Below, piece by piece: positions 5,367 to 63,517 of a stretch of 64,000 bases of DNA. The translations under genes and the position numbers were made by a program. The stretch covers positions 3,410,001 through 3,474,000 of the forward strand of contig JAWMAR010000067.1 in the NCBI GenBank assembly GCA_036785375.1, given 5' to 3'. Source of the stretch: Leucoraja ocellata (lineage: Eukaryota). Within the stretch, counting starts at the first letter, position 1. The number at the start of each line of letters is the position of its first letter. The notes below the pieces were generated by a model. It was not told the origin of the DNA. It ran no database searches and saw only the letters and a program-made list of their open reading frames with translations.

Positions 5367-5495
5367 GATAGACACAAAAAGCTGGAGTAACTCAGCAGGA
5401 CAAGCAGCATCTCTGGAGAGAAGGAATGGGTGACGTTTCGGATCGAGACCCTTCTTCAGACCCTAAACTTCTCGACCCAAAACGTCACCCATTCC
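5367..5495 (-). mobile_element. Penelope-terminus-derived short element with a minimal hammerhead ribozyme core (5428-5463)
   Basis: Minus strand reads GGGT CTGAAGA A GGGTCTCGATCC GAAAC GTC ACCC: core CUGANGA/GAAA/GUC, stem II hairpin, stem I GGGU/ACCC. Confidence 0.75.
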
Positions 5496-7104
5496 TAGAA
5501 AGCATCCCATCAGGCAGGATGCTTGTTTATTCATTCACATTTTGGTGTTGGAACTGCTGTGCCAAAGACTGCGAGAAACCATTGACAGCTAACGCAACCC
5601 AGTCCCAAAAGAGCAATCAGAATCTCAATCATGGATCCTCTGACAGTACAACGCTTCCTCAGAGTCAGCACTGCAATGAAAAGTAATACTGATTTTTTGT
5701 AATACGTTAATTCATGTACTGTGTAATATATGCACAACTGTTCGGGCTCCGGAGACAGAGAAGATTTGCTTACATTAAAAAGGGTATACAGAAGGTTACA
5801 AGCATGACAATCAGCAACTACAAAATCAGCAATCAATCTGAAACACTAACTCTGTTTTTCCTTTCACAGTTACCAGGAATTTCTGATTTTGTTACAAGTT
5901 TGATATCAGATACCATAAATATTAAAGACAATGAAAGATTGAGGTTTGGACCTATGGCATGAAAAATGAAGATAACAAAGAAATTTAATTAGAACAAATA
6001 AAATATTAAAACATCCAGTTTAGGAAAGACATTGCATCCACTTTCAAATGAATAGAATATAACCAGATAAAATGAATAAAAATGAGCAAAGAGTACATTC
6101 AACGAAAGACATTTAACATATACTTTTGACAACATTTTTGAAAACATTTTATAACTTCAATATTTGAATTTTCTGTTACTGGCAAAAGCAAAAGCCAGTT
6201 AAAATATAGTTGAATATCCCTGACCCACTGACTTTGTGTTTTGCTAGAACATTGGAATCAGAAGAAGGGTCAAAACCTAAAATGTCTCCTATCCATGTTT
6301 TCCACAGATGCTGCCTAACTCGCTGGGTTACTCCAGCACTTTGTGTCCTTTTGTGTAAACCAGCATCTGCAGTTCCTTGGTTCTATGATCAAATGATCTA
6401 CTGAGCAAGTTTGAGGGGTCAAATAGTCTACATCTCTCTTACTCTTTTGTTCCTCTTAAGTAGCATGATCGCTTCAACGATCCCTCTTTATTTGTAATGT
6501 TATATTTTGTACCTTGCTAGGGAAGTTGCTTTTATTTACTAGCAAAAACGTTCTAACTATCTCCCCCCAGTGGAAATGGCTCATACTGCAACCTGGTCAA
6601 CTTACTGCTATGTTCTTGCTCTTTTGTTCCACCTTTATCCGGACAACCAAGGTACGTTCCTGAATCAAATATCAACCTCATTAATTAAGAAAACTGGGAT
6701 CTTAAGAAAATATACCAATTATTATTTCTGAACAGAGGAATCAGTTGTGAAATCTATCTATAAAACATTGCTGATTAAAATCTCGTGGATAAGAGGATGA
6801 ACTCTGAAAAAAGGAAATGCTCCATTTTTTTTGTGGTGCTAGGATTAGAAGGACTTGGTATAATGGGGCCGCTGCAGCATGTAAATGTTCTTATTCCAAC
6901 TTCTGCCCAGTCTACCTTCCCTATAGCCAGTATTTCACTGTGCATCCTGCTGCAGAGAGGTACTGAAATCAGGCATAAAGCTTAATGGCAATATCTTCCC
7001 TACTAATTATCTAATGCATAAAATTTATCTTTGTGTGATACTATTAGCTAATGTATTACTATTTGCCATATCATATATAGCTACAATTTTTCATTCTTTA
7101 CTTT

Positions 7105-7390
7105 TAGACTTTAGTGATACGGCGCGGAAACAGGCCCTTTGGCCCAGCGAGTCCTCGCCGACCAGCAATCACTCCGTAAATCATCACAATCCTACACACG
7201 TGGGACAATTTACAATTTACCGAAGCCAATTAACCTTTTTAGAATGTGGGAGGAAACCGGAACACCCGGAGAAAGCCTATGCAGTCAGAGAGAATGTTCA
7301 GACTCTGTACAGACAGCACCCGTGGTCGGGATCAAACCTGGGTCTCTGGCGCTGCAAGGCAGCAACTATACCGCCATGCCACCCTGCCGC
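7105..7390 (-). mobile_element. tRNA-derived SINE (V-SINE/HE1-like) with CR1-type 3' end
   Basis: Minus-strand head ggcagggtggcatggcggtatagttgctgcc has A- and B-box-like motifs. Central ggtgttccggtttcctcccacattc domain; tail gggccaaagggcctgtttccgcgccgtatc. Related copies lie at ~12360-12750, 14385-14668, 18190-18460, 42998-43200 and 50925-51217. Confidence 0.75.
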
Positions 7391-7883
7391 CCTCATGCTG
7401 CATTAATATTCTTATTAATTAGTAGTTTATAGCTTAAAATTTAAAATGAAATCATGTGCTGTAGTTTCTGCTGACACTATTGAGAGCATAGAGAAACCTG
7501 ATGGAAATTTGCCCCGCAACACTTTAAAACATAGATGCATCAAAAGTAGAGTGCTACCTAGCACAAGGCTTAGATTGCTTCCAGGAATTTCTGGACAAGT
7601 ACTTGAAAGTCACACATTGCATTTTATATTCTCCTTTGCATTTTAGAAATTCTTTACCCAAATCCATAGGGATGTAATAATAAGTCTATCATTCAAAAGA
7701 AGAATACTCTTAAACATTTCCTGCCCTGTAACTTATTAAAACAAATAATAGTCATGATGACTACAAAACTACAAGATTGTTATTATATGTTACCTGGTTC
7801 ACTAATATCCTACAGGGATGGAAACCTACCCTCCTTATCATAGTTTATAAATCCCAGTTTATACATGACTCCAGATCTACTAA

Positions 7884-8044
7884 AGATACACACAAAATGC
7901 TGGACTGAAGTTTGAAGAAGGGTCTCAACCTGAAACGTCACCCATTTCATCTCTCCAGAGTTGCTGCCTGTCCCACTGAGTTATTCCACCATTTTATGTC
8001 TATCGTCCGTTTAAACCAGCATCTGCAGTTCCTTCACACACATA
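7884..8044 (+). mobile_element. Hammerhead-type Penelope-derived short element with 14-bp TSD
   Basis: Flanked by tccagatctactaa (7870-7883 and 8045-8058). Contains tgaagaagggtctcaacctgaaacgtcaccc. Confidence 0.75.
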
Positions 8045-11000
8045 TCCAGATCTACTAATGTGATTAACTAGACAATAGCCTTATAAGAGCTATGAGAGAT
8101 AGGAAAATAAGGCTGGCATTCATGGGGGGAGGGAGGGGGGGGGGGGAGATTGGTTTTCATGGTGAAACTATTAGCATAATATTTAGTTCATCTCCTGGAA
8201 AGGATGCTATGCACAGTGATGCTTCAAAAGCAAAGCAAATGAATGTCGAATTTACATTAGAACAGTGAAACTAAGAAAATAATTGAATCTGTATCCTACT
8301 ATAACCACAAGAACAACAATATTTAGTTAAATAGCACCATAAACATTGCAAAGCATCTTAAATGTGCAAAGAAACAAAATTTGACATCAGCCACGCGGCA
8401 AGATATTAGAGCTGAAGATATAAAGCTTGGTAAAATAAATGGATTTTAAAAAGGAATTTGAAGGAGAGAGCTACAGAGGTGGAAAAGGGGTTAGGGGAAG
8501 AGGGCAGGAGAATGGGGTTAGGAGGATGAGATAAATCAGCCATGATTGAATGGCGGAGTACATGATGGACCAATTGGCCTAATTCTGCTCCTATCACATA
8601 TGGAAAAAAATAGCAGGGCTTGGTTAGTAAAAGCACATTATGAACTATGAAGAGCAATTAATTTGGTGGATAATTACCAAGTCAGCAAGGAAAGAGGCAG
8701 ATTTCTTCGTCACTAAAGGTCAAGATGCAAGTGCAACAAATGTAACTATTGGTAGGAGGGTTCTTTATTAAGAAGAGATTTGATTACAACAGTAAATAAG
8801 TCTAATTGCAATTATTTTTAGCTCTGGTGCGACCACACCTGGAATATTCTGTAGTTTTGATATTTGTACCCAAGGAAGGATGTACCTGTCATAATGGATT
8901 AGCTCCAGCATTGGTGGGTTTGCTGTCTGAGAGATAGTGTGCAGGGGACATATTCTTTCGAGTTTGGAATAAGAGGAGATTTTATTGAAACATAACACAA
9001 TTGTAAAAGAGATTGACAGGCCAGAAGCAAGGAGGATATTTCCCTCGAGTGAGAAGTTTTAGGCCAGAAAGCACAATTTGAGAATAAGAAATTGGCTATT
9101 CAGGGCTAAGATGAGAAGAAATTTTTCATTTAGTGAGCAGTGAAGCCTTTAAATTCTTGGCTTGAGAAATCTGTGTGGTTATATTCATTCATAATAAAGA
9201 TGGATAAATGAGTGGGAAAGTTAGTTAAGATATGTACATACAGTATATTTACATTGTTTGCACAACCCCATTGCAAATAAGAAGCGCTAATGTTATTGAG
9301 GTGAAGCTATGATTGTAGACAATCTAGTTTAGCCAGACAGTTATGGGGAATAGAGTTTATGGAATGTATCCAATGAAACTTGCTTAGCTATCGATGCCAG
9401 AAAGCAGGATGTGGAAAATGTATCTTGTCAACAAAGTGAAAATCTTTTTTATTCACACCAAAATGACGCCATGAATTCGCCAACTTCGATATCTCAAAAA
9501 TAGCATATTTTGAAGAAGCTGTTTGACTTTTATGATTCTAAATATTGATAAAAAATACATCTGTTGATGCTCCTGAACACATCATCAGTGATGTAACCTG
9601 AGCTGTTTGACTTTTATGATTCTAAATAAAACAAATTGGGTGCCCAGTGGTTACAACATTGAAGTTCATTATCAGGCAGGAGGTATAGAAGCCTCAAGTC
9701 ACACTCCACCAGGTTCAGAAACAGTTACTTTCCCACAACTATCAGGTTCTAGAAGCAACCCGCACAACTTTAATCCTACCTCGACATCAGAACCACCTCT
9801 TGCACTACCTTGGATTTATTTTTTACTGTGTTTTGCACAAATGTCTTTTTATTTTTGCTTTGCTGTCTTGCACAATTTATGTTCTTACGTTTGTCTGAGT
9901 CTATGTGACACTGCTGCAAGCAAGATTTTCATTGTTCCTACACCATGTGCACATGGCAATAAATGTGACTTGTCTAACTTGAAATTCTTTAAAGGCATTA
10001 AAAGCTGAATGTTGTTAAGGAAGCCATCAGATTGCAGAATTTTGTAGTAACAACCTTGTAGAAATTTAGTACGACTTCTTCCAGTCTACATTCCCTATCA
10101 TGGCCCAGTGCCAATTTAATGCCTTAAAGTGATGACACTTGCATAAATTTTCTGCACAAATACAAATGCAACCCAAGAAAACCGCAACAAATGGGTTTTT
10201 AAAGAATGGTATATATATTTGCAGAACAGAAAATATATTAATATGATTTATGCAATGCTTTGCCAAGGAGACAGGATGAATCCTTAATTCATTCGAGGAA
10301 TAAGCTTCCAAATACTCTGATGGGTTTTTAGAATTCACCAACGAGAACACTATTCGGGAATATGATCTTTTATTTAGTTATAAATCCTTCTGACAAAAAT
10401 GTTCATAAAAATAATTGAATAGACCATACTAATAATGTAAGCAGAACTTGTTCATGTGTATCTTTTTCCTATTTCCTTTTTCCTACATTGTGTAGTTAAG
10501 TTCCAGATGTAACGGACAGAAAGAAGAGAAGCTTTGAGTCTGTATATTGTTTTATCCATTCCTTTTAAGGTACAGGTATCTCAAGTAAAGACTGATAATA
10601 GCTCCTGAACCATCCTACCAAAAATTAGAGAGCAGTCCTGAACTACTTTCTATCTCATTGGAGATCCTTGGACTTTCTTTGATCGGACTTTACCGACTTT
10701 ATCTTGCACTGAACGTTATTCACGATATCTCCTTTGTGATGTACCTGGATTGTAATCATGTATTGTCTCTCCGCTGACTGGTTAGCATGCAACAAAAGCT
10801 TTTCACTGTACCTCGGTTCACATGAAAATAAACTAAACTGAAACTGAATGTGTAAATCATAGCAGCCTAGAATTCTAGTGTACTCTACAAGTGAATTGGG
10901 GATTGCAACCTCTCGTCATAGGTTGTGCAGCATAGCTGAAGCGTATAAGAATAAAGGATGAACTTGTAGAAACATATAAGGGATTGATAAGCTGGATGCT

Positions 11001-15468: not shown

Positions 15469-16305
15469 CTAGACCAAGTTGGACCCATCTGGTCCCGTCC
15501 CCCAACACGGCATCACAGGGGAGGGCTGGTCCCTGAAGGCAATATTCCACCACTCACCCAGAGGTCCCAATACTCACCACTCCCTAGGGGGGTAAAAAGG
15601 GAGAGGTGGTAAAGAAGGAGGGGGGTGGGGGGTAGAGAGGGAGGGGGGGGGGGTAGAGAGGGAGGGGGGGGGGTAGAGAGGGAGGGGGGGTTAGAGAGGG
15701 AGGGGGGTTAGAGAGGGAGGGGGTACAGACAGAGGGGCGGCAGAGAGGGAGGGGGTAGAAAGGGAGGCGGAGGGGGTAGAGAGGGAGGGGGTAGAGAGGG
15801 GGAGGTGGAGAGGGAGGGGGAGGTGCAGGGGGTAGAGAGGGAGAGGGAGGGGAGTAGAGAGGGAGGGCGAGGGGGATAGAGAGGGAGAGGGGCAGAGATG
15901 GAGGGGGGTAGAAACCCTACCCCATCTCCCTCCTCCTCATTTCCCTCATCCTCCTCCCCTCACTTCCATTCCCTGCCCCAGGACCTACCCAGGTCATAGA
16001 GCAGCGCCAGGGCCTGGACAGCTTGGGAGCCCATTGTGATTGGTGCACTGTGAGAGGCATTGTGAAATCATCACTGGACGCTCTCTGAGAACGCGGTTTT
16101 GGCTTTTTTTGAAAGTTTAAATCATGAATAACTTCGTAAATATAGGTCAGAAAGCGACGGGAAAATGTTTATGGCTTTGACGGGAAAAATATGAGTAGAA
16201 TATGTGAAAATGGGAAGGCTGTGGCCGAGCGTATGGAAGAAGATAGGAAAAAGCAGAGTAGAGTGACACATTGCTGGCACAAACAAAGAGTTTTAGTTAT
16301 ATAGA
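15469..16305 (-). mobile_element. Non-autonomous Helitron with internal G-rich minisatellite
   Basis: On the minus strand A|TCTATATAACTAAAACTC...GGGACCAGATGGGTCC hairpin...CTAG|T. Canonical TC/CTAG ends in an AT target, no TSD. (AGAGAGGGAGGGGG)-like array at ~15600-15910. Confidence 0.85.
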
Positions 16306-18789
16306 TAAAAAGGAACTGCAGATGTTGGCTTACACCAAAGATAGACAGAAAATGCTGGAATAACACAGCGGGTCAGGCAGCATCTCTGGAGAAAATGAAT
16401 AGGTGGTGTTTGGGGTCGGGACCTTTCTTCAGGCTGATTTGGGGGGGGGGGGGGGGGGGAGACTGGAAGTGAGAGAAATCCCTTTTTCAAGATCCAAATT
16501 ATTAGAAACATCATCTCTCCATTTTCTCCAGCGATGCTGCTTGACCCGTGGAGTTACTCCAGTATTTTGTGAATATTCAGTTTTTATACCTACCCAGATC
16601 ATTACAGTCTATATACACTCAGTACAAGTCTTTAATTTCATTGAATAATCATCTTAACACTACCTGGAATTAACCTAATGGAATATATATTATATCCAGT
16701 CCTTATTAAATACCATGAAATATCATTACAGGTATTATTATTATCTGTCTGAAAAAAGGTCCCGAGCTGAAGTCGCCATCCATTCAATTCAGAACTGCTG
16801 TCTGGCCTGCTGAGTTACTCCAGCATTTTGTGTTTTGCTCATGATTCCAGCTCTTGCAGTCTCTAGTGCCTCCATTATTATTATTACTAGTTTGGAAAAA
16901 TGCTTTAAGAATGAATGGGGACATTTACATAAAAATCAAATTTTTATGAAACTAGTCATTCGGAACTTTGGGAACCCCGACTAAATCATGCACTTGTGAA
17001 ATGGAATAGTGGAACTTTGTTTGTTTGGGCACACAATAAGATGTCAAGCAAGAACTGAGTGGAAATCAGATTTAACAAAAGGTAAATCACAGCCAGGCAC
17101 AAGCACAAAACACTCTAGTGTTATTTGTGCTAAACAATGTATTAACTATTTCCAACTAAATATATTCACTGTTCATAAGTTTAGTCATTATGAACAGATT
17201 ATTCATAACAAAGAAAATGAAAAACTAAGCATGAATTGGTCTATTAATGGGGCTGGCAAGATGGCACATCTAGACTACAACAGAAGGTATTAAAGCACTT
17301 AAATCAAAGTATATGAATCAACCAGTTCTTAATTAAACTTACAGAAATAAAAATATTACAAAATGAAAATGGAGTAGCTGTGCTTTACATAGACATATCC
17401 CATGAGACCTAAAAATAAGGGAAATCAGATTAAACAGAGATTTGATTTCATACTTTGAACGGATGATGGGTCAAAAGGACCTCTCTTTTTCATTGTTTAC
17501 GAAAGAACTGCAGATGCTGGAAAAATCGAAGGTAGACAGAAATGCTGGAGAAACTCAGCGGGTGAGGCAGCATCTATGGAGCAAAGTAGGTGACGTTTCA
17601 GGTCGAGACCCTTCTCACTGCAATTCTTCTTCTTCCTCCTGCAATGGGCAAGGGTGTGCCTGGAATATGACAATATTTTGAAAGACACAACCAAATAATC
17701 TCTGGGGATGACAGCAGAGAATCTCCTACCTGTACAGGCGGCAGGATCTTATGTTGAAGACCATGATGACAGTCTCCACAACGTTCCTGGTGGACAATAG
17801 CTATGTTTTTCCTTATCTGCCAACACTGGACAGCACAGAGTCACAGCAGATAGTTCGGCTTACCTGGGTTTGATCCTGACTTTGTGTGGAGTTTTATCTG
17901 TGAATGTATAGGCTTCCCCAAGATGCTCTGGTCCTGCCTCCCCCCATCCCAAAGTACACGCTAGGCAGTTAATTGGTCTTTATAATTTTCTTCTAGTGTA
18001 GATGGGTGGCAGAAGAATCAGGAAGGAGAAGATGTGAGGGAGAATAAGTCATAGGAAAGCAAACAAGGGAGTGAGATTGACTGAAATACTATGAGCCAGC
18101 ATAGACTCGATGGGCAAAATGCCCTCCAGTCATGAGAAAGTACGAGTTATCAAATGTCAAATGACCAATGATTTCCTGGCAACCAGATAGAGAATGTTAG
18201 AGCTGCTGCCTCACAATGCCCGAGACCTGGGTTTGATCATGACGTCGGATGCTTTCTGTGTGGAGTTTGAATGTTTCCTCTGGGTGCACCAGTTTCCTCT
18301 CACTTCGCAACAACGTGTGGGTTTGTAGGTTAATTGGCATCTGTGAAATTGCCCCTGATGTTTAGGATGTGGATGAGAAAGCGGGATAACATAGAATAGT
18401 CGATGGTCAAACTGGACGGTGGGCCGAAGGGCCTAGCCTCCATGCTGTATCTTTCAATCAATTCAATCAATCCATAAAGAGGAGAACCCTCATCCTCCAG
18501 AAGGATCTGTTGGCCAGCTGCAGTGGATGAAAAGTGGCATGGAACATACAAGTAATTCATGCTTCCCTGATCCACCAGGATCTTTAACAAGTTTGAACAT
18601 ACTTGGTGAACAACAACCTTTTCTAAAAAATGGAAAAGTCAAAATGCACGCATTGAGCTCTTAGACCAATAAATATGCAGTCTATTTCCTTCACCCTTGA
18701 GAAGATTGCTGTCTGAAATTCTGTGTGTGTCTTCTCTTTTGCTGTTTACTGAAGGAGAAGGAGAATAAATCAATGAATCTGTGGTTTAA

Positions 18790-19400: not shown

Positions 19401-20714
19401 AACCTCCATCAAGCAAGATTGCATGTGATATGAAATATAGCATTTATCAGCTGTTGCCACATTTATCAGCTGTTGGTTTATGCATGCAACCAATCATATA
19501 TAGGTTAGCATCACTAACCCCGCCTTACTGTGTCATTTATATTAACACCCACTTCCTTTGCTACGCAGTTCGGGTAGCAGACAGGATGCAGTGACAACTA
19601 ACATGCTATTGTGCTGTTAAGTCTGTATGTAGATTAAAGATGATCTTAAATTACATGACGTGTATATGTCTTATCTACACCACCTACAATGAGCTGGAAG
19701 CGTTCACTACTACAGGAGAGCAATCCAGGCAAGAATGTCCATTGTAACTCTGGTTGCAGCAGGTGCTATCACTGCCTATAAAAATCTTAACTCCCATTGT
19801 TCCTGTTCATATGTGCATGTAGGAATGTTGCTTGCGCATGATTCTTGAGAAATAGGTCCTTCCAGTGCAAGCGCTTTTCCTTTTCTACCTTGGCATCATC
19901 TGGCAAGATACTGTAGATCCAAAGTTTGCAATAATGGATTTAAAGAGAAGCTCAGTGGCAGATTGGTTATTGGTTTCTGATGTTTGGAGAAAATGAGTTA
20001 TCGAACAAGAAAAATCCCATTAAACCAACGGTAGTTACAAAATATATTTTATGAAACAAATTGACTTAGTAACTGAAAAGCGAAATAATTGTAGATGCTT
20101 GAAATCTGAAATCAAAACAGAAAATGCTGGTATACTCAGCAGGTTACGCATCACCTGTGGAGAAAGAAACAGAGTTAAAGTTTGAGGTCAATAAAAGTAA
20201 GAAAGCAATTATTATATTGTCCTGAAGCAAAAAAAAAAAATTGCTGGAGGAACTCTGTAGGTGACCAGACTCCAGCACCAATAGTCTCTTTTGTCTCCAT
20301 TTCACTGCAATTTTTTGTTGTACGCCCACTTTAAAGAAGTTCTCCAGCTCCCTTTGCCTGGGATTTTGTGAATCCTTCTCCCACTGTTCTCCCTCCATTA
20401 TTTTCATTGATCTTCTGCTCTTTGACAATGTTCTCACCTCGATTCAGTACCATAGCCAGCTGCCCGTTTGACCTGCTGAGATCCTCCAGCAATTTGGGTT
20501 CTGAACCTGAAACCTTAACTCTGTTTTTCTCTCCAAGGATGTGCCTGGTCTGTGTATCCCCACCATTTCCTTTTATTTGGAACTATTGATTACTTACTAC
20601 AAATTCGCTTCCAATCTACTGTAAATAACTTCACACACAAGGAGTGCATCACAAAATACTGAGATTAGAGTCAAATATTGTTATAATCTATCAGCATACA
20701 TATGGCGGTGCTGG

Positions 20715-26920: not shown

Positions 26921-27031
26921 GTTCACTTTTCAGTTTGAAAACCCTTTGTTCGGTACATCATCAGGTGCTTTTCTAAATGCTGCTTGGCATGATAGTGTTT
27001 CCAGCAACAAATCAGTAGCACTATCACCTTA

Positions 27032-36719: not shown

Positions 36720-36813
36720 GTCTGAAGAAGGGTCTCGACCCGAAACGTCGCCTATTTCCTTTGCTCCATAGATGCTGCCTCACCCAGCTGAATTTCTTCA
36801 GCATTTTTGTATA
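36720..36813 (+). mobile_element. Hammerhead-type short element with intact core
   Basis: gtctgaagaagggtctcgacccgaaacgtcgcc, flanked by ccttcacc repeats inside the Rex1 RT. Confidence 0.75.
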
Positions 36814-48000: not shown

Positions 48001-48981
48001 GCATGCTCACCAACTTCATCACTGTCTTCATCACTTCCAAAATCCCCCTCTACGTGATGGACATGACCCTTCTTTTTCTGCCAAGGTCTGTCTTTCTTTT
48101 CACTGGACCCTGCCTTGGAAGATTCACTCTTGTTGTAATTACTTGTCTTGTACCTGGCCTGACTTTTACATTTCTTTGCAAAATGTCTTTGCAAAATGTT
48201 CTACCTTTTGCTGGACAACATGCATCTATCCCTCTGTGACCCTTGTTGCCATACCTGTAACACTCGATCTCACGTTCAGGCTTGCTTCTTGGTCTACCAT
48301 AGGACAGCTGGGTAACTTGCCCAGTCTTGGAATCTTTCAGTTTCATGCTGTGAAATTGTCCCTCAACAGCTTCCATTGTCACTGCAATCGACAAAGCATC
48401 ATTAAGGTTTAACTCACCCCCTTTTTCTAGCAGCCTTCTCCTGAGCTTGTCTGACCTGCAATGCTGGACAACCTGATCCAATATCTGGTTTTCCACATCA
48501 GCAACCATATATTTACATCCTACAGACACCTGTCTGTCTTGTCACAAATCAAGCAGTCTCGCCCTCTTCCTGCTTTGTTTTGTGGAATAAATGGCGTTGA
48601 AATGTAGCATGCGGTACCACCACATAGTGACTGTTCAATGCATCAACGGCTTTCTTATAGTCTTCCTTCATTCCAGTGTCAGGGAGTGTTTTAAACATTC
48701 GAACCGCTGGCCCTGTGGTGAAGAGAAGCAATGCTCTCCGTTGCGCCTTATGCCCCGGCATACTCTCATCAAGAAAGAGCCCGCGACTGTCGGCATAGGC
48801 CTCGAATTCCTCCAGCCAAGCATTCCACTTCACGTTGACGGTTCTCGCATCACCCGTCGGATCGAAGTGAGGAACTCGGCGAAGTGCGAACAAATCAGCT
48901 CCAGCGGTTGCCATTATGAAACATTTTTCTAACCTTTTTCCAGCTCCTAGCCACGGATTCAGAATCCAAAATATTCAAAAT

Positions 48982-49196: not shown

Positions 49197-51755
49197 GTGA
49201 CTACCTGTGATAGACTGGGCAGATTGAGTGCAGATTGAAAATGGATAATCAGTTTTGACTAAAGGCAAAAATACTCTAAAATGTCATTAGTTACATTTCT
49301 TTTCCTGGTCCTGGCCCTTCTACTGGGGCAGACGCAGAGCAGACAATATTTTTCAAAGGAGAGTGATGTTCAAGCAGAAAGCATTACAGTAAAATTAGGA
49401 GTTGTGGGTCATTGATTAATGACAGTATGGAGTGAGTGGGCAAGAATAAGGGAAATTTGAGAGAATGTGTGGAAAAAAAAATCTGAAGTGCTTGAAGAAA
49501 GGTCCCGAGCCGAAACTTCTCCTATCCATGTCATCCAGGGATGCTGCCTGCCTGCTGAGTTACTCCAGAACTTTGTATCCTTTTGTGTACACTAGCATAT
49601 GCAGTTCCTTGTTTCCACATCTAGAACCATCTTTAACTTGGTCTGCATCTGCAAACACAACAAGGTTGGCCACAGATGCCTTGGTTGGTGGCAAGTAAAT
49701 AGGCCCCAAGGATCAAGACTTTGAGTGCTGCTCAACAGAGTTTTTATGAGGAGAGTTTCATGGATTGGACAAATAAGTACATGGAACATAGGGAGGGTCG
49801 GGAAGGGTGGTTAGTAAGGGGAATGGCAGTTAGGTGACTTTGGGTGTTCATGATAAGGGGTTTGGAGGTTTGGGATATTCATGCTAAGGACATTTAGGTG
49901 TGAGATCTGGATCAGTAGTTTACTAGAATCCCAGGGAATTATGGATCAGGCAGGAACATGAGGTGGATGCTCAGCCCTGATCTTATCAAATGATGGAGCA
50001 ATCTCAGGGGTATTTCAGACAGAAGAAGGATCTCGACCTGAAATATCACCCATTCCTTCTCTCCAAAGTTGCTACCCTGTCCCGCTGAGTTACTCCAGCA
50101 TTTTGTGTCTATCTTCAGTGTTAATCAGCATTTGCAATTCCTTCCTACACATTTCGTCTGTGGTATTTCCATGGATAAACAGCAGTGATTTGAAAGAGGT
50201 ATTCTACAGCCAGCACAGGAGTACAGCTTGGACAATATCAAGTTCTTAAATCTTAACATTACACAGTTAATGATTTTAGCGTGAAATTTATTAATTATGC
50301 TACCTGTTAAAATTAATAATTTAAATGTATTTGTTAAAATAGCAAACCATGGATGTAATGCGACTGTATAAGCCATTCCTCGATTAATATTTTGATTGCA
50401 TAGCAACAGGTACCTGCAACACTTGCACTATAAGTCTGGCTGTGATGAAGCAGCATATAATTGTGACAAATGATCTCAAGTAAGCTGCTAATGAGAAATA
50501 GTATTGGTTAAGCAACAATGTTATTTTTTCCAGGCATATAATTACAGAAGATAACGGATGTATCCTTGCACAAAATGGCATCTGATAGTCTGAAAGATTT
50601 GCAATGTATCAGGGTCATCAAGCAATCCATGTGTTGATTGATGAAGTGATCACTGCCTAATGAGGTCACACCTGCCATCCATTATTTATCTACTCCACTA
50701 CAGAAACCGTTTACAGCCCATAACCCTACTCAATGTCAAGTGATTGAAAGACCCTGGCATTATTCGGGAGCTGTGAACAATATAATTAAGGCAATGACTA
50801 TGCTGCCCAGCAAAATTAACCAACGCTGCATGAAGAGCCAAAATAATTAGCAGCAACAACACAAAAGTGCAATGTGTAATAATGTTGAATATATTCGCTG
50901 TATTTTATAAAGCTTCACTTACGACTTTACTTTAGACTTTAGAGATACAGCACGGAAACAGGCCCTTCGGCCCACCGAGTCCACGCATTTCAGCGATCAC
51001 ACCATACACTAACACTGTCCCACAGACCAGGGACAATTTTTACAACTTACAAAGCCAATTAACCTACAAACTTGTACATCTTTGGAGTGTGGGAGGAAAC
51101 CCACGCGGTCACAGAGAGAATGTACAAACTCCGTACAGACAGCTCCCGTAGTCAGGATCGAACCTGGGTCTGGTGCTGTGAGGCAACAAGTCTGTTGCTG
51201 CGCCACTGTGCTGCCCTGATTTGTTTCTGATTTGATTGAAGATCACTTCGTAAAAAGGAAAGTTGACTGAGAACACTTTCTCCCTTAAATTGTAAATAAC
51301 ATCTTTGACTTTTTATATTATTATTTACTTGACAGTAAATTAATTAAGATTAGTTTTCATGTCCTGATAACATGATGGATTGAATGTGTTTCACACCATC
51401 TCACTGACCTCCCTTTCTTTCATGATAATCTTGAAAATGAACTCCACAATTCAAGAAAGTGTTGCCAAATACTTAAATCATTTACCTGGAATTGAGCCAC
51501 TGAAATACTTTGTTGTTCCACTTTTCAATATTTTACTCAGGACGTGAAAACTAATCTTAATTTAAAACCTGATGAAAGAAAATAGCTTTTTTAACCCCTT
51601 CTTTGCAAGACACACCACAGGAATACAAAAGACAAATAATTCAAAATCTTGAGGAAAAATGTAAAAATATCTACTCTTGGATGGATAAAGTAATGAGTGC
51701 CAGCCATGACTCAGCTGAAAACACTCTTGAAACAAAGTTGTAATTTCAAGCCTGA

Positions 51756-52072: not shown

Positions 52073-53692
52073 TGACTCAATAGACCTGATGCAAAGATCT
52101 AGATTTACATGACTGTAGTGCTGAGAACATGCAGCACTATTGGAGGTGCCATCTATTGAATGAGATGCCAAACCAAAGCTTTGCCTTCCCAGTAGAAACA
52201 ATTTCATGCCGGGACCCTTCTTCAGACTCTTGAATGGTGAACAATATCATGTCTGAACGAGGGTCCTGCCCCGAAATGTCCATGTTCTCCAGAGATGCTG
52301 CCTGACCCACTGAGTTACACCAGCACTTTGTGGCCTTAATGCCACAAAGTGCTTCTTAATGCCAGAAGTAAATCCTTTGGCTGATGTCTTTCTGTCTCCT
52401 GTCTCCTGTCTCCAAGTTTCAGTTAGCAGGACTAGGATTCAAGTTTCCTACACTCTTCTCCTGCGTTAATGAGTTGATATTCCAGGTAGGTAAAGATGAG
52501 TTGAAATAATTCCTGGAGCAAGTCAAGAACACGGATCAATGCACTGTCCAAAGGAATCGTGTACTATCCTTCGACATGATCAACAGTCTTAGCACAACAT
52601 AAGGGTTTGCTTCGTTTGAAAATAAAATTGGTGTATTGTCTTTTACAATCAAGGTTAAGGAATCAAACAATTCTAAAAGTGTTATTTTACTTGGAAGTTG
52701 ATTCCATCACCATTAAGGAGAAAAACACCAGTTAGCATAGCTTTCCCATGGCAGTGATGTAACTTTGTTAAGAAGGCTGCCTTCAGCCAAAACTCAAAAT
52801 AGACCAATGACGTTAGTCAGCAACATTTCCTACATCTCCTCACTCCTCCTTCTTCATAGCACAGTATTTATTCAACAGAAAGAATATACTTGCCCCTCGA
52901 CTCAATTATCAGATACATAAACTGAGTCCATACTTTCAACAGATGTTTAATTAGTGGATTTGGTGAACCCCAAGAGTGAAGAAGGACCAGAAAATATATC
53001 TCAGAAATAGTGGTGGGCCAAGGAGAGTTAGGGCAATGTACGTAGATCATTAAAATCACATGGACAGATGCAAAATATTATCCAAATAGCTGATGCAATA
53101 TCATTCTGTATCTTCCAATCCTCTAGAGATAACGAGACTACAGATATATAAACTATGCTTAGATTATATCTTGAACACAATACACCACTGGACATTGCAC
53201 TTTAGCAAGTATGTATTGTTTTCTGATGGAATGCAGAGTTAATTTACCAAAATGATACCTGAACTCCAAGGCAAAAATTATGAATCAGTAACTATTTCCA
53301 AGAATCCAGATTAAAGCTCGATACAATTACTTTTTTATTACTTTAAAGGGAACATTATGACATTTATGCAGTGGATTAGTAATTCATGCTGGTTGGGAAA
53401 TCTCAGACAAAGAATCATGGTTTAAAAATTAAACTCTAGTGCTGTAAGGCAGCAAATCTACCGCTGTGCTGCCCCTTATCGAGTGGATAGGGAAAGCAAC
53501 AATAGATAGTAGTAGACCATATGGTTTGCTCCTGAAACTATTATTTTGTTGTAAACGACAATTTAAAAAAGTTTACAAATCTGAATCTTGCTGTAACATA
53601 CTAAAAATAATCTATTTTTTCAGTCATTCTCAAATTATTATTTTTTTTAGTTTTGATGGTAATATGATTACACAAATTACTCAAGTTCACCT

Positions 53693-54795
53693 GGACCATT
53701 TCCGACATCTCCCTACCGTTCCTTGATCTCACCATCTCCATCGCAGGTAACAGACTACTGACCGACATCTACTACAAACCCACTGACTCCCACAGCTATC
53801 TTGACTACACTTCTTCCCACCCTGCTTCCTGTAAGGACTCTATCACTTACTCCCAATTCTTCCATCTACGCAGCATCTGCACCCAGGATGAGGTGTTCCA
53901 GACCAGGGCATCGGAGATGTCCTCATTCTTTAGGAAACGTGGGTTTCCCTTTTTTATTATAGATGAGGCTTTCACCAAGGTCTACTCTATATCCCGCAGC
54001 TCCGCTCTTACTCCCCATCGCCCTACTCATAACAAGGGCAGAGTCCCCCTTGTCCTCACCTTCCACCCCATCAGCGGTCGTATCTATATTACTAAATCTC
54101 TGTTTTTGACCGCTTTTGGCCTTCTGTGCTGCGATTTCAGAGAGAACGCCTTCATTTTTGGCCACCTCGCTCAGAGCCCCCCTCGCTCAGAGCCGCATGT
54201 GTGCCGAGGATTTTTCCCGTCGATGAAAAATGACAGAGATATTAATGTTTTTACAAAACAACAGTCTTTCCAGGTGAGGCAGAGGTTCACCTGCACCTCC
54301 TCCAACCTCATCTACTGCATCCGCTGTCGTAGGTGTCACCTTCTCTACATTGGCGAGACCAAGCGTAGACTCGGCGACCGCCTTGCCCAACACCTCCGTT
54401 CAGTCCGTACTAACCAACCTGATCTCCCAGTTACCCAGCACTTCAACTCCCCCTCCCATTCTGAATCTGACCTTTCTGGCCTGGGCCTCCTCCATTGCCA
54501 GAGTGAGGCCCAGCGTAAATTGGAGGAACACCTCATATTTTGCTTGTGTAGTTTACACCCCAGCGGTATGAACGTCAACTTCTCTAATTTCGGGTAGTCC
54601 TTGCTTTCCCCCTCCTTCCCCTCCCCCTTCCCAGCCCTCCCACATAGCCTACTGTCTCAGCCTCTTCATTTCTTTTTCCTGTCCCCCCCACCCCACATCA
54701 GTCTGAAGAAGGGTCTCGACCCAAAACGTCACCTACTCCTTTTCTCCATAGATGCTGCCTCACCCGCTGAGTTTCTCCAGCATTGTTTGTCTACA
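53693..54795 (+). mobile_element. Penelope-like element 3' fragment (RT C-terminus, GIY-YIG endonuclease, terminal hammerhead-like motif)
   Basis: TDIYYKPTDSHSYLDYTSSHP; SSFFRKRGFP; FTCTSSNLIYCIRCRRCHLLYIGETKRRLGDRLAQH; HPSGMN. Followed by ctgaagaagggtctcgacccaaaacgtcacc at ~54703. Confidence 0.92.
54085..54257 (+). mobile_element. Helitron 5' fragment inside the Penelope element
   Basis: a|tctatattactaaatctctg resembles the 5' ends of the other Helitrons here. It replaces Penelope linker sequence. Confidence 0.6.
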
Positions 54796-55859: not shown

Positions 55860-56320
55860 TGGAGGGACTGTGGAGCGGCCAGCTGCGGGCAGCGGCGCTG
55901 ACCTTAAACATCGCGGAGCCTGGGATCTCTCGCCGAGATCGCCAATGGTGGAGCTCCGTCCAGCGCGTTGGCTTCGGAAGCCACGGTCTCCGGTAAGGAT
56001 GCGGCCGTTCCAGGCATCCCAAGCTGCTGAGAGGATTCTTCCAACGCCGGAGCACCATCACCCGGCGAGAAGGGTCTTAAAACATCGGCCCCCGTAAAGG
56101 CGACTGCGGTGGCCTCAATGGGCCTGACTATGGGTGGACATGGGGATGGGGACTGGACTTTGTGCCTTCCCCCACAGTGGGAACCATTGTGGGGGATGTT
56201 TTTATGTTTACATTTCTTTACTATTGTTATGTATGTATTCTTTTTAATGTGCTGCAATGGCAACTTGAATTTCACTACACCAATTGGTGTATGTGACAAT
56301 AAATGAACCTTTGAACTTTT
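55860..56320 (+). mobile_element. GC-rich non-autonomous retroelement, 3' part
   Basis: Hairpin 56168-56196, terminal stem-loop, gacaataaa and (TTTGAAC)-like tail. Confidence 0.65.
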
Positions 56321-56794
56321 GAAGATTAGAGGTTGTTCAGCCAGAGCTGAACACACTTCTCGGCATCTGCATACAATGGTGTCTGTCTTGCGCTTCTTGT
56401 GCGTGGTGGTGGACAGATTGGTGAAAACAGGGCCGCAACGTGAACACTCTTTCCTTGACCCCACTTCCACATTAATCTTTGTACACAGTTTTCCAAAATT
56501 GGCCTTACCAAACTCTTCAAAAGATGACGTCTCAGCTACTGGACGCAATACCCTGACTGATGAACAGTGGCGTGCCAAACACCTTCTTCACCACCCTGTC
56601 TACTTGTATAGCCAACTTCATGGAACTATATATTTGTACCCTTAGTCCATATTATATAAGATCTTTTCTAAATTAAATCGACAAAACATAAACATTACAC
56701 GTATTAACTGGTGAAATTTCTTCAATGATTTACACATTTTATCTTGAATTCTTTATGGTACTTCTGGTTCTTTTTGTCAATTAAACTTCTATGG

Positions 56795-57082: not shown

Positions 57083-57665
57083 TTCTATGGAATAGTTGTC
57101 TATGAGAATGCAAGCAAGAATTACGTAACAGCTGCTTTGGTTAATAGAAAAGGTACAGAGGGATATGGGCCAAACGCGGGGAGGTGGGACTAGTGTAATT
57201 GGGGCATCTTGGTCGGCATGGACAAGTTGGACCGAAAGGCCAGTTTCCGTGCTGTGTGACTATTTATGTACTGAATCCAGAGAACATGCAGTTTTCAGTA
57301 ATCAAACAAATGGCATGGTTTAAGTTATCATTTTGACTTTCTTCAAAAAGTGTGGTCATTTATACTGTAGAAACAAGGAACTACAGATGATGGTTTACAA
57401 AACAAAACTGCTGGAATAACTCAGTGGGTTGGGCATTACCACTGAGACATGGATAGGTGACGTATCAGTTCATCTACCATTTTTTCCAGAGGTGCTGCTT
57501 GACCTGCTGAGTACTCCAGTACTTTATCGTAGGTCATAACATTGATAACACAAATCAGGTTCTGCATTGGTATATACATTTTTAAATGTTAGGATACACT
57601 GATTTACTTTGGTATTCAAATATATGCTGAGAGCATGCCAAGTGTGTAGAATTTGCAATCCTTAC

Positions 57666-57789
57666 CTCTGAACTCTCGATGGAGGTGCAAACACACCATG
57701 CTTTGGCTGACAGGTGAAATATTGCACGCCCCCTACGGAGCCATTGTTTCTGCCATTCGGTTTATCCAATTCAATCCCATACCAATAAC
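57666..57789 (-). CDS. CLIP4: CLIP4 internal coding exon (124 bp), C-terminal half of a CAP-Gly domain
   Basis: Minus strand tttcatag|GT TAT TGG...CAG AG|gtaag translates to (G)YWYGIELDKPNGRNNGSVGGVQYFTCQPKHGVFAPPSRVQR. This is a CAP-Gly GKNDG-type motif. GSVGGVQYF and FAPPSRVQR match CLIP4 better than CLIP3 (recalled sequences, no search run). Confidence 0.93.
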
Positions 57790-59376
57790 CTATGAAATGA
57801 CATATTAAAAAAAAATGCACAGCATTAATAACATAATTCTATCTATGTCCATCCTGAATTGAATAGACAAAGGTGGCATTTGACTCTCATTGAAATTTGC
57901 AAGTTATCATTTTTGCGAACCCAAACTATACTTGTAAGATGTTCCATTCAGTGGTGGAACAGACCATTTTCTTGAGCATCCCCACTGGCTGCCTAATATA
58001 ATATGGCTCTTTCATCATTAACTGAGGAGGTTGATGACTGTCTTACACCTAACAAGGTAAAGAAACAGGGATGAATAGAGTAGGAGCTAAAGATAGACAC
58101 AAAGTACCAGAGTAACTCAGCGGGTCAGGTAGCATCTCTGGAGAAAAAGTAGGAGTTAGATCAGGTCTGCTTAGAACTTACACAATTTTTAAAAAATCAT
58201 TGTGGAACCAAACAAAAAATATGCCCTTTGCATTACCATTCTTTAATTGCTCCCCATAGCTAACTCGCACCATTATCATCACCATCTCCCATTCTATCCC
58301 TTACTTTATATCCGCAACTCCCCCATCCTGACTACGTCTACATTTTAGGCCACAGCTAATAAGACAATTGGTTAAGGACTTATTCTCCAAAAATGGATGA
58401 TTTACATATGTGATGGCAACAGTAGAAATAATGATTATTTAAACATGCTGAAAAGGTATTTATTCTGCAACAAACAATCTGCTGGACGAGCTCAGGGGTT
58501 GTCGATGTTTCAGGTCAAAATCCTACATTAGGATCCATTTCAATCCAAAACATTGACAATTCCACACCCTCCACCCCTCCTAAAGATACTGATTGACCCA
58601 ATGAGTTCCTCCTGCAGACTGTATATTGCACCAGATTCCAACACCTGACATCTCTTGTGGCTCCAATATATTTAATCAGTTACTTTTAAAAGTTACATTT
58701 GTATGTGATCCTTCTCACCCAAGCATTTGGCACGGTTGACAACACAAGATTCCAACAGTGCCTCTCCAGCATCATCTACCTGGGTGGTTCTGCACGTACC
58801 CAGTTCCATTCTTAGCTATCCAGTCCTAGTTATAGAATTAGGCAATCATTTATATCTCACGCCTGCACCATTAACTCTCATGTTCCAAAGACGTATCCTT
58901 GGCCCTACTTACCTCTCAACTACATACTATCCCAAATCAACAAGATCTGAAAATGTAGCATCAGTTTCTACATGTATGCCACTGTTACAGTTCTACCTAC
59001 AAATACCACTCTTGCTACTCTTCATTGTTTATAAAGTAGCACAATGCTTGTTTGACATTCAGTACCGGAGAGCGGAGATTGTTCGAAGGATGAAGCCACT
59101 GCATTCAGTATTCTCTATAAATTCCACTTGATGCGCACCAATTTCACCCCTCCATCTGTCAATTGTCAGAACCTAGAAATTTTTCTTCACTTGTCTATCT
59201 CAACATTTTCCTGTCCACTTTCATTTGTTCTGTCTTTTGGAAACTTGAAGTCATCTAAAACTCTTCTTTCTGCGACCTAACTCACAATAAGTCCCAGACA
59301 TCCACTAATTTAGCCTGGCTCCAGGCTAAGCAATTTGAAAATTCTTATCTCGGTTTGATTACTTCTCTTATCCTTA

Positions 59377-60571: not shown

Positions 60572-60825
60572 CAGTGCCTCCATAATGTTTGGGACAAAGA
60601 CCCATCATTTATTTATTTACCTCTGTACTCCACAATTTGAGATTTGCAATAGAAAAAAATCACATGTGGTTAAATTGCAAATTGTCAGATTTTAATAAAG
60701 GCCATTTTTATACATTTTGGTTTTACCATGTAGAAATTACAGCAGTGTTTGTACATAGTCCCCCCCATTTCAGGGCACCATAATGTTTGGGACACAGCAA
60801 TGTCGAGTAAATGAAAGTACTCATG
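60572..60825 (-). mobile_element. Isolated right end of the same Tc1 family
   Basis: TA|cagtgcctccataatgtttgggacaaag TIR. The inner sequence is the reverse complement of ~3170-3210. Confidence 0.88.
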
Positions 60826-61954
60826 TGGGTGTGTGTGGGCGGGTGGTGTGGAGGGGAGGGGTGTGTGTGTGGGCGGGGTGTGTGTGTGGGCGGGGGGATT
60901 GTGGGCAGGGGGTGAGCAGGGGGTGTTGTGGAGGAGGGGTTTATGGGTGGGGAGGGTTGTATGGGGAGGAGGGATGGGTTGTGGGGGGGAGGGGAGGTTT
61001 GTGGGGGGGAGGGGAGGTTTGTGGGAGGGGGAGGGAGTTGTGGGGGGGTTGTGGGGTAAGGGAGGGTTGTGGGTGAGAGGGGTGTGTGGGCGAGGCGGTG
61101 TGGCGTTGTGGGGGGGAACGTTGTGGGGGTGTGTGGGCAGCGGAGGTTGTGTGGGGGAGGGGTTGTGTGGGAGGGGGGTGTGGGAGGGGAGGGGTTGTGG
61201 GGGGAGGGGTGTGTGGGAGGGGTGTGTGTGGGCAGGGGGGTTGTAAGGGGGGGAGGGGTGTGGGGGAGGAGGGGGGGAGTGGTGTGGGGGCTGGGGGTAG
61301 TGGTGTGTGGGTGGGGGGGGAGGGGTGTGGCGCAGGGGGGAGAGCTCAGAGAAAAGACGGGGAAGAGCCATAGGGAAGAGTGCGGTATCACGGGGGAAGG
61401 GGGCAGGAGCCAGTGAGGGGGACCAGAGGGGAAGGGGTTGGCCGTGCGATGGGGACTCACAGCGGTCTTTGGTCGCTGGCCGCTGGTCACTTCGCTGGCC
61501 ACTGGTTGCGCTCCTCCGCCGGGATCAGAATCTCCACTTTCCGTTTGGTGACATCGGTGCCATTTCCGACCACCTCGAGCTGGGTCGGCCCTTTTTCCGA
61601 AAATTGTGTCCGGTTGGAAACCGCCGCTGGCCATCCAGGGCCTCCCGCAGCTGCAGTAAAGACATGATGGCGCAGGAAGGGGCGGACCGTCCTGCGGAGT
61701 GACAGTAGAAGGGACCAATCCGCGCGGCTCTGAATGGCAGGAGAGGCAATCGATCTGTGCACGCGCGTTTTTTAAGATTTTTAAACCCCCGATAAGTCTT
61801 AGCTGCTTCCACCGATCAGAACGAAACTTGGTGCAATCGCAGCACAGGAGAACGGTGAGTAAGCTGGCGAAAAATCGTAGCGCTATCGCGTACCGTTTTT
61901 GTGCAAATAGAATGACCGCCATACCGGAAGATAACCAGATCAGAGTTTTATAGA
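60826..61954 (-). mobile_element. Helitron-like element (5' end present, 3' end not seen) with G-rich minisatellite
   Basis: Minus strand a|tctataaaactctgatc, the same start motif as the 59377 element. (GGGTTGTGGGG)-like array at ~60826-61340. Confidence 0.65.
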
Positions 61955-63286
61955 TAACCATATATATTATGATATATGCATCCACCTACAGATATACAAT
62001 TCTGCTCAATTTTTACTTAGTTATTGTGCTTATTGAAAATATCAGCCCTTTATGCACCAACGTTGAAAAAGCATAAAGTTAATCTTCAACACAAATATAT
62101 ATTCCAGTATTTTTTTTATTTCTGTATTGCAAAGTAAATATTTTCTTGAATAAAAATTCAAACAGTACTTAAAGAATTAACCATCACAGAAGAATGGCAA
62201 CATTGTTTTTACGCTTATTCTTATGGTGACTTACTAAAGTTATTTTTTTCTTCTAATCGCCACCAGAATTTTACTTTCAATATCAGTATGGCACAGAGGA
62301 AAATGTGATAATGAACCTGTCTCATCTAATACTGACCACATTTTATCAAAGGAAATTAGATCGGGCTGGAGGAAAAGATGGAAGATCAGGTCACTAGCTT
62401 TTTCCCTTTGTGACATGGACCCATGAGAATAAACACAGGGACATTAATTTGTCTAGCAAATGTTCCCAAGGCAATTCAAAGCCAGTAAATTACTTATGGA
62501 GTACAATCATCCCTGTAGTATGTGATAAATAAAACAACCAAACTACACACAACAATGAGATAAATGATCTCGTAATGTTTTTGTAATGTTTGAGTAAATG
62601 ATAAATGTTGGCTAGGAAATTAGGAAAATTCCCTGAAGACTTCAAATAGTACCACAGGATCGACAATATAAGCCCTTGATATTCAGCATATTCAACACCA
62701 AATATACTGAAGCACTCCTCCTTTTGCATTAAAGTGGCCATCTGGGTATATACTCAGTTGTCTGTACTGCAGCTTGAATCTATGACCTCCAGCTCAGAAA
62801 CCAATGAGCAATAACAACCAGCAGACAATGGAATTACTGCATTTGGGCAACATGGTCAGCTTAGACACTGTGGCAATGGGGCTGTTTCTGTGCCATATGA
62901 TTCCATGAGTAACCACTGAGTTAAGACTGGCACTTCATAAAGAAGAAGGTATAATTAATTGTTTAAGAAGGAACTGCAGATGCTGGAAAAATCGAAGGTA
63001 GATATAAATGCTGGAGAAACTCAGCGGGTGAGGCAGCATCTATAAAGCGAAGGAATAGGTGACGTTTTGGGTCGAGACCCTTTTTCAGACTTGTGACAAT
63101 TACAATTTGTGGTATAATTCCAAAAGAGATTTTATCAAAATATTCTGGAACAATTAGTTCTGTTCAATTTTATTTCATACAAAAAAAGTAAGATAACAGC
63201 TATAGCAATAACTCTGATTTCTATACTATTAACTGATCTATGAGAAAATCCATTGACACCCAAACCCAAGTATCGTTACGACTTCA

Positions 63287-63517
63287 TGTGCAGGAAGGAA
63301 CTGCAGATGCTGGTTTATACCAATGATAGACACAAAATGTTGGAGTAACTCAGCGGGTCAGGCAGCATCTCTGGAGAATAGGAATGAGTGATGTTTCAGG
63401 TCTGAACCCATCTTAAGACCCTTGCGAAGAAGGGTTCTGACCTGAAACGTCACCTATTCTTTTTTTCCAGAGAAGCTGCCTGACCTGCTGAGTTACTCCA
63501 GCACTTTGTGTCTATCA
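63287..63517. mobile_element. Inverted-pair Penelope-derived short element with 11-bp TSD
   Basis: Mirror arms around a ~15-nt centre, flanked by ttacgacttca (63276-63286, 63518-63528). Confidence 0.8.

Follow-up and report, generated by a model that had tools for sequence, protein, structure and literature searches.

Repeat units in the window and their setting

The window analysed here, a stretch of 64,000 nucleotides of the Leucoraja ocellata contig JAWMAR010000067.1 (positions 3,410,001 to 3,474,000), contains numerous short repeat units with a minimal hammerhead ribozyme motif, which very probably are the terminal 100-135 bp (hammerhead, body and an optional 36-bp tail) of several subfamilies of putatively Neptune-type Penelope-like elements (PLEs). 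An earlier note on this sequence had listed the motif at 20 positions. We have built a detection profile from the window copies, counting loci at 20 bits or more and numbering copy positions from C3 (= 0), the first base of CUGANGA; the subfamily letters A to D are labels of this analysis. The 31-mer by which the motif had been described has no exact match in the window, three matches with up to one mismatch and 14 with up to six; the profile matches all 20 positions, 19 of them at 20 bits or more, the other (58505) being a weak and highly decayed remnant at 58493-58624 that scores 9 and 17 bits. The top score on ten shuffled versions of the window was 6.6 bits. Altogether 26 loci, corresponding to 30 hits, reach the threshold, seven of them absent from the earlier list, and their orientation is unbiased (11 on the plus strand, 11 on the minus strand and four inverted pairs).

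The hammerhead is complete in two of these copies, which lie 31 kb apart on opposite strands: a B-type end without tail on the minus strand (5360-5496, made up of the end itself at 5360-5463 and a short inverted arm at 5470-5496), with C3 at 5459 and a predicted cut after 5432, and an A-type untailed end on the plus strand (36712-36821), which starts 2 nt before C3 (36722), has a predicted cut after 36749 and is flanked by an 8-bp target site duplication (TSD) at 36712 and 36814. Damage to the motif is found in further A- and B-type copies: C3 is mutated in a tailed B-type end (7870-8058, plus strand; end 7908-8042, short inverted arm 7880-7905, 14-bp TSD at 7870 and 8045), CUGANGA is truncated in a tailed A-type end (17494-17616, minus strand) and carries a deletion in a tailed B-type end (42732-42860, minus strand), the GAAAC box is mutated in an A-type untailed end (41371-41500, minus strand; end 41371-41472, short inverted arm 41477-41500), and G8 and G12 are mutated in a tailed A-type end (62948-63119, minus strand; end 62960-63092, 9-bp TSD at 62948 and 63111). 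Broken hammerheads are also carried by the tailed B-type end at 50009-50169 (plus strand; end 50016-50151, candidate 8-bp TSD at 50009 and 50162), by two tailed ends of the older C type (6255-6383 and 49489-49616, both plus strand), by a tailed end preceded by about 29 nt of pyrimidine-rich untranslated region (UTR) at 16305-16436 (minus strand) and by an old end at 16746-16863 (plus strand).

The inverted pairs combine a tailed and an untailed arm: at 30537-30758 the untailed arm is on the minus strand (30544-30644) and the tailed one on the plus strand (30669-30740), within a 12-bp TSD at 30537 and 30747, while at 31975-32180 (tailed 31983-32113, minus; untailed 32115-32171, plus; 9-bp TSD at 31975 and 32172), at 63276-63528 (tailed 63287-63421, minus; untailed 63426-63520, plus; 11-bp TSD at 63276 and 63518) and at 57370-57527, where CUGANGA is found in neither arm, the tailed arm is on the minus strand and the untailed one on the plus strand. 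An untailed end at 52250-52334 (plus strand) has a short inverted arm at 52199-52229 (minus strand). The loci added to the earlier list are an old end lacking an intact hammerhead (20082-20189, minus strand), another lacking the hammerhead (29123-29235, minus strand), a body fragment missing the 5' half of the hammerhead (16505-16578, plus strand), one without CUGANGA (58086-58168, minus strand), one at 31175-31220 (plus strand) and two old body fragments (26070-26143 and 37977-38049, both minus strand).

All five TSDs named previously are exact, each enclosing the whole unit including inverted arms, and further candidates are GGTATAATT (62948/63111) and GGTATTTC (50009/50162). The excess of TSDs over shuffled pairings (see below) supports the view that most units are separate insertions, so that the proposal of about 20 independent events stands in large part; the exception is the copy at 27439. 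This copy (B-type, 27435-27534, plus strand, with a remnant left arm at 27398-27424) sits in a miniature inverted-repeat transposable element (MITE) of about 640 bp with terminal inverted repeats (27028-27668; TTAA on the left, TTTA on the right), which has a TTAA-like target and is probably Kolobok/T2-like. The best genome matches to the copy are copies of the same MITE, and since the same right-hand motif-to-MITE junction recurs in 24 of 28 other loci examined, the copy is not an independent insertion: a MITE subfamily was amplified after capturing an inverted pair of PLE ends, and in the window copy most of the left arm is gone. Of the two landings that had been described, in a reading frame of a long interspersed nuclear element (LINE) and in a MITE, only the first is therefore an insertion in its own right: the 36722 copy interrupts a LINE reverse transcriptase (RT) region, which is split between match blocks at residue 261.

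A density of about one copy per 3 kb inside a host gene had also been put forward. The density holds for the window, but it is the genome average, and one host exon only is confirmed in the window. In a genome sample of 110 stretches of 10 kb, taken at round coordinates on contigs C1-C450 (1.1 Mb), we find 396 loci, i.e. one per 2.8 kb (3.6 per 10 kb, standard error 0.25), and none in shuffled sequence; 312 of the 396 are single and 62 head-to-head. Extrapolation to the 3.44-Gb genome gives about 1.2 million loci. The 26 loci of the window are thus ordinary, and because this density is genome-wide the CLIP4-like host gene is not special. A second copy of the window lies 273-276 kb downstream (C67:3683313-3750439, loci L131-L138), is 96.4-98.5% identical and represents either a segmental duplication or an unpurged haplotype. 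Comparison of the two copies for empty sites revealed no repeat unit that differed in presence, and none of the three extra insertions of the second copy (about 1.1 kb, 1.85 kb and 85 bp) has a profile match.

Relation to Penelope-like elements

The window contains a 5'-truncated PLE (53668-54794, plus strand), whose 309-codon open frame covers the end of the RT and a GIY-YIG endonuclease and is followed by a pyrimidine-rich UTR and an untailed end; as had been noted, the motif forms its 3' terminus, here with G12 of the hammerhead (54703, plus strand) mutated to A. A search with this frame returned 20 loci, all of which carry the same terminus, full or partly deleted, behind the open reading frame (ORF), and the suggested Penelope origin of the motif is supported. 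One locus (L053) is a full tandem, measuring 3,930 bp from hammerhead to hammerhead with a direct repeat of 529 bp at 97.7% identity, and another (L051) has an open frame of 1,254 codons with DKG, YIDD, a CX4CXXC linker (residue 1121) and YIGET. The domain matches fall below the curated cut-offs, with RVT_1 at E 5e-6 for the L051 frame and GIY-YIG at E 3e-4 for the window ORF. Judging by motif layout, the putative source element fits an endonuclease-positive (EN+) PLE of Neptune or Nematis type, the linker being common to both, and it displays a partial tandem, an inverted 5' copy, a one-sided tail of 30-40 bp and a TSD.

Clustering of 287 near-complete hits resolves at least four subfamilies, with mean divergences from about 6% to 16%, and A-, B- and D-type bodies were each found joined to a Penelope UTR and ORF. 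Copies reduced to the end of the element, hereafter stubs, can, when young, be identical to an ORF-linked end over 68 of 68 bases (L101:1536 and L172:8860) or 64 of 64 (L186:6406); in the window, A-type copies are 90-95% identical to the best ORF-linked end and older copies 76-87%. These results do not agree with the single non-autonomous family, mobilised in trans, that had been proposed. We consider it quite unlikely that the short copies constitute a distinct ribozyme-bearing family, whose members are transcribed and depend on the Penelope protein for movement in trans. Such a family would share with a SINE-like master the 5' boundary described below, it would account for stubs far outnumbering ORF-linked copies (only 11 of 113 extend beyond 100 nt) and for the C subfamily, to which no ORF link could be demonstrated, and some stubs could act as sources if both an initiator and an internal promoter were located inside them; moreover, pseudo-long terminal repeat (pLTR) sequences acting in trans have been reported in A. 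vaga. However, the stub sequence tracks that of the ORF-bearing subfamilies, up to 100%, longer copies form a continuum through the UTR into the ORF, the young stubs have neither a common 5' head nor a captured flank, and the hammerhead core decays. The simplest reading is that stubs represent the termini of autonomous subfamilies that succeeded one another. They were probably produced by the PLE protein acting on its own RNA, and were probably dead on arrival. As the open frames of the young source subfamily are near-intact, this subfamily could be assayed.

Some additional observations were made on ORF-bearing copies. The tandem element at L053:1505-5971 has a 16-bp TSD that overlaps the last tail bases, similar to the overlap of element end and TSD at 36814 in the window. 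Five copies (L056, L057, L062, L064 and L065) have long inverted arms of 250-2,600 bp; among those in which both 3' ends are seen, four have or approach the arrangement with one tail and L065 has two tails. Within the window, weak old PLE-end remnants cluster on both strands at 20237-20568, and a frame at 20289-20462 resembles the N-terminus of a PLE protein, so the 5' part of an old element may lie there.

Termini of the copies

The copies have two alternative 3' ends, at about +94 and +130 from C3, which accounts for the optional 36-bp tail. Among the 62 inverted pairs of the sample, 47 combine one tailed and one untailed arm, whereas four have two tails, two have none and nine have a cut arm; single copies divide almost evenly into short (151) and tailed (137), with 24 being cut. 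TSDs of at least 8 nt were found in 19 of 61 inverted pairs and 30 of 305 single copies, as compared to 1.3-1.4% in shuffled pairings, the observed rates being lower bounds.

A distinct pattern resulted from the analysis of the 5' ends, for which we have used the 113 of 238 single copies that are well matched to an ORF-linked reference (1.1 Mb). Of the 64 copies still at risk, 46 stop in the 10-nt interval that leads up to C3, a rate of 7.2% per nt. In the bins on either side of this interval the rate is 2.2%, from +10 to +50 it is 0.6-0.9% per nt, and further out than -20 it is 0-0.7%; only 11 of the 113 run on for more than 100 nt. The 5' ends thus pile up about tenfold just before CUGA (-5 to +5) and not at the cleavage site, the commonest end being -3 (14/113), and the full set of 238 single copies shows the same shape (82/126). 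Bases -12 to -6 of 80 stubs have a genome-like rather than a UTR-like composition, which indicates that the boundary does not result from alignment drop-out. Also, contigs and RNA reads of related organisms have heterogeneous loose ends at -2 and -3.

Integrity and decay of the hammerhead motif

The units do have the layout of the minimal type I motif of metazoan PLEs, as had been recognised (CUGAAGA, an extra A, a 4-bp stem II beginning with G-C, GAAA, a CG palindrome and UH), although it is complete in only two of the 30 window hits. The core is present in the subfamily consensuses, except for a CpG-decayed G12 call in one old cluster. Helix I has 2 bp in most copies and 4 bp at 5459, and is therefore in general shorter than the 4-5 bp of the metazoan PLE motif, and the youngest subfamily has GUU instead of GUC at the cut site. 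A scan with Rfam covariance models gave no hammerhead family among its 11 matches at E up to 1.

Among the motif-covering hits of the genome sample the core is kept in 64 of 233 and every feature in 31 of 233 (~13%); ORF-linked ends, among which young copies are over-represented, have an intact core in 46 of 68 cases. The divergence of T and of G, measured in 194 sampled copies, is about equal in core and body (6.7 versus 5.8% for T and 4.9 versus 5.9% for G), so that the excess conservation of the core over its flanks, on which the earlier note had made its proposal depend, is largely absent. From the intact-core counts and the comparison of core and body divergence it results that source elements keep the motif and stubs lose it. 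CpG sites are 25% diverged, and G12 and the palindrome, which lie on CpGs, are 20-30% decayed. Changes in the helices are mostly one-sided, from U-A to U-G (216/58 at the stem II closing pair and 109/49 in helix I), and double changes are few (12/307 at the first pair) and may be decay. The predicted hammerhead fold is weak (-4.3 to -8.4 kcal/mol), lying above the minimum-energy fold in all three cases, and folding z-scores denote no unusual stability in any of five stretches. We infer that the hammerhead is a passenger that decays after insertion.

It appears extremely unlikely that hammerhead-cleaved RNA is the template of the stubs, or that the ribozymes act in place within host pre-mRNA. 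Retention of the core in source elements would suit such activity, as would the complete state of about 13% of the motif-covering hits and the predicted cofold of a dimer of the 5459 copy, in which helix I, stem II and the ACGU palindrome are paired. Nevertheless, 5' ends have no peak at the cut site, position +28 holding 4 of 113 single copies and the bin +21 to +30 only 9 of 97; stubs contain the whole motif, meaning that the template was uncut there, and in published work minimal hammerheads fail to cleave as monomers and cleave weakly as dimers. Further points against are the 28 incomplete window hits out of 30, the distance and opposite strands of the two complete ones, and the unbiased orientation of the copies.

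Proposed mechanism of insertion

We have considered how these ends may arise. Transcription of a tandem element would begin at an initiator-like site (TCAGTCT) immediately ahead of the hammerhead, and the PLE protein would cut AT-leaning DNA. Reverse transcription would then begin inside the element RNA, at +94 or +130, and the cDNA would run off the RNA 5' end and be joined to the target, leaving a stub; where both DNA ends were extended, one from each start site, an inverted pair would form within a single TSD. The boundary sequence fits the initiator consensus YYANWYY, with its A at -3. An anole PLE protein is known to cut and extend both strands in vitro, on an uncut RNA template and from two internal RT start sites that bound the tail (PMC11167929, as far as the text available to us describes it). 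Taken as a whole, the explanation by PLE ends made on the element's own RNA, run-off included, is in our view probable, and for the run-off step itself, as the cause of the 5' boundary, we see the chances as evenly balanced.

A number of observations weigh against this explanation. The boundary is a ladder over about 10 nt and not a single base, and three raw RNA runs of related organisms reveal no site at which molecules start or terminate in large numbers, although this is a weak test, as the libraries are fragmented and embedded copies swamp them; the read depth covers -5 to +130 on both strands, as expected of copies embedded in host transcripts. No clear cap-derived G is present: among non-C cases at -4 the base is G in 6 of 19, and among non-A cases at -3 in 10 of 18, A-to-G decay being a confounding factor. 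In the D. virilis Penelope, transcription is driven by an internal TATA-less promoter and starts 46 bp ahead of an intron of 75 bp, the end of which maps to the edge of the hammerhead; this start, some 120 nt upstream of the hammerhead, is therefore not at the motif itself. A search of 28 loci of the older C subfamily yielded no ORF link, apart from one weak tblastn match, and several of these loci carry a pyrimidine-rich UTR-like leader only. Finally, core A is less diverged than body A in the 194 copies (4.2 versus 8.2%, p = 0.0002), a contrast to which one body column at 20% contributes much, the other five being at 4.7-7.8%.

The ladder at the boundary, which coincides with the 5' strand of helix I, is also what would be expected if stubs were 5'-truncated copies from the downstream repeat of a long RNA, the RT being stalled or released at the hammerhead fold, at a bound protein or at a pyrimidine tract. 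Stalling at the motif requires no new start site, and a C-rich tract begins just upstream of the boundary in every ORF-linked end shown, which makes it a fair rival to run-off, even if we judge it a possibility on the less likely side. At the boundary, however, the enzyme has the core and stem II already behind it, the motif folds weakly and with unremarkable z-scores, and stubs from subfamilies with different UTRs begin in the same interval. A further alternative is that the boundary corresponds to a 3' splice site (pyrimidine tract, AG and then TCTGA), as at the D. virilis Penelope intron, which ends at the 5' edge of helix I, and that stubs derive from processed RNA. In most of 10 ORF-linked ends a pyrimidine tract and AG do precede -1; yet there is no credible spliced copy among 235 non-UTR copies (two chance-like 12-nt matches), no joint at -1 among the RNA joints listed, and the donor site is not conserved across subfamilies, which renders this alternative very unlikely.

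A tandem derivative and a bolder reading

Outside the window we have observed a 66-bp head-to-tail unit derived from a C-like body (+20 to +85), in which both CUGANGA and stem II are missing. Its arrays have 1-10 junctions and 1% divergence (58/5,742 bases), and the 22-nt junction has 25,456 exact matches in the genome, as compared to none for the reversed control. The unit is clustered, with seven matches in the 110 random stretches, all in one of them, and 73 in 140 kb of C1; none falls in the window and, among the plus-strand matches listed, none lies before 18 Mb of C1. Arrays are found at L127:3879-4242 and 9069-9589, L251-L264 (C1:20.36-20.55 Mb), L064:7443-7732, L079 and L203. On visual inspection, many of the 43 arrays have both their boundaries within PLE ends that are older, decayed and of other subfamilies, and many have in common a linker containing a D-type palindrome. 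This young unit has the appearance of a genuine non-autonomous derivative, with insertion by homology and local spread, and is a candidate homing element.

A bolder reading, which we put forward tentatively and regard, both parts together, as rather doubtful, is that PLE stubs are the equivalent of retroviral strong-stop DNA, with the 31-nt ribozyme core as terminal repeat, and that the same ends have also spawned a young 66-bp homing tandem parasite. In that case transcripts would begin about 3-5 nt ahead of CUGA and would have their end at the hammerhead cut in the downstream repeat; the first short cDNA would jump across the core to copy the rest of the element, and failed jumps would yield the million stubs, whilst the 66-bp parasite would use old resident ends as homing targets and disperse locally on the chromosomes. 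If the strong-stop proposal were true, the hammerheads of PLEs, whose role is an open question, would gain a function.

Other features of the window

The confirmed host exon (57666-57789, minus strand) encodes part of a CAP-Gly domain, with CLIP4 as the best solved-structure match, and a contig of sequencing run X3 covers exactly that stretch. It is the sole match among the 80 of 159 candidate minus-strand frames that were scanned, which include no other host exon. LINE RT fragments occur at 985-2602 (minus strand) and about 36570-37600 (plus strand), the first of which is flanked by inverted repeats (85-273 and 3198-3385) and adjoined by a transposase-like frame (about 250-900). The region 46508-48974 (minus strand) resembles a broken LTR retrotransposon, with RT and RNase H Pfam matches in 46511-47206. 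A GC-rich region of about 3 kb (33137-36284) has several overlapping open frames of 150-200 codons and little similarity to sampled repeats, and three frames tested there gave no Pfam match. A weak partial match to the CPEB3 ribozyme model is found at 56429-56462 (minus strand; 20 bits, E 0.88, below the gathering score), with a pile-up of RNA reads from run X21 close by (56141-56195).

Comparison with known systems

Minimal type I hammerheads in the pLTRs of metazoan PLEs were described in 2014 by Cervera and De la Peña (PMC4209133), and in the portions of that work accessible to us the motif is the same as here in having CUGANGA, an extra base between 9 and 10.1, G10.1-C11.1, GAAA, palindromic 15.2-16.2 and no helix III. 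It is likewise sited in PLE terminal repeats and occurs as thousands of dispersed single motifs, ascribed to truncated PLEs, with close opposite-strand pairs. The motif of S. mansoni has a helix II of 7-8 bp and a helix I of 4-5 bp, whereas those found here are of 4 bp and 2-4 bp, and the GUU at the cut site of the youngest subfamily is also a difference. In coelacanth and Xenopus 4,000-9,000 motifs were reported, as compared to the 1.2 million extrapolated loci here, with perhaps 13% of the motif-covering hits being complete. Cartilaginous fish are not among the hosts named in the accessible portions of that paper, whose supplements may list such motifs.

Animal non-LTR retrozymes (bioRxiv 10.64898/2026.07.22.740005), reported in one chondrichthyan according to the part of the preprint available, are similarly non-coding, hammerhead-bearing and related to PLE pLTRs, and dispersed monomers exist. 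Nonetheless, they are defined as tandem units each with a complete hammerhead, and the window copies are single or head-to-head; with no tandem array of the unit in the window, and with 312 single and 62 head-to-head loci among the 396 sampled, they are not retrozymes by this definition. Our literature search returned no account of this family or of its 5' pile-up, although a Dfam or Repbase entry may well exist and the supplement of the 2026 preprint may list cartilaginous-fish motifs. Published accounts already cover the kind of motif and its scattered occurrence on truncated PLEs, as well as the presence of an inverted arm, a tail and TSDs. As a ribozyme family little is thus added, the kind being known and most copies broken; the value of these repeats is as a record of PLE insertion, which is still poorly understood.

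The EN+ PLEs Neptune and Nematis (PMC8557442, PMC3846280), as described in the sections of these papers available to us, share with the elements studied here an RT with a C-terminal GIY-YIG domain, the CX4CXXC linker and partial tandems. In both, copies are strongly truncated at the 5' side, an inverted copy that is likewise 5'-truncated occurs, one of the ends has a tail of 30-40 bp, and a fraction of copies has TSDs of 8-17 bp. In contrast, most insertions here are reduced to the pLTR tip, and no (TA)n target is evident at the window copies; those sections were not found to mention a tenfold accumulation of 5' ends at the edge of the hammerhead.

A parallel in mechanism concerns the Anolis Poseidon element PAc (Frangieh et al. 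2024, PMC11167929), for which the available text reports two internal start sites bounding the tail, extension of both strands, uncut RNA as template and a hammerhead about 100 nt upstream of the start sites, all of which are alike. Run-off stubs were not found described in that text, and PAc belongs to the Poseidon clade, where the ORF begins inside the hammerhead, while here the first in-frame ATG is about 167 nt after C3. About a million insertions now provide rules that can be tested, namely two 3' ends, one of each per inverted pair, and 5' ends located before CUGA and not at the cut site, and these rules extend the in vitro result of 2024 to a genome.

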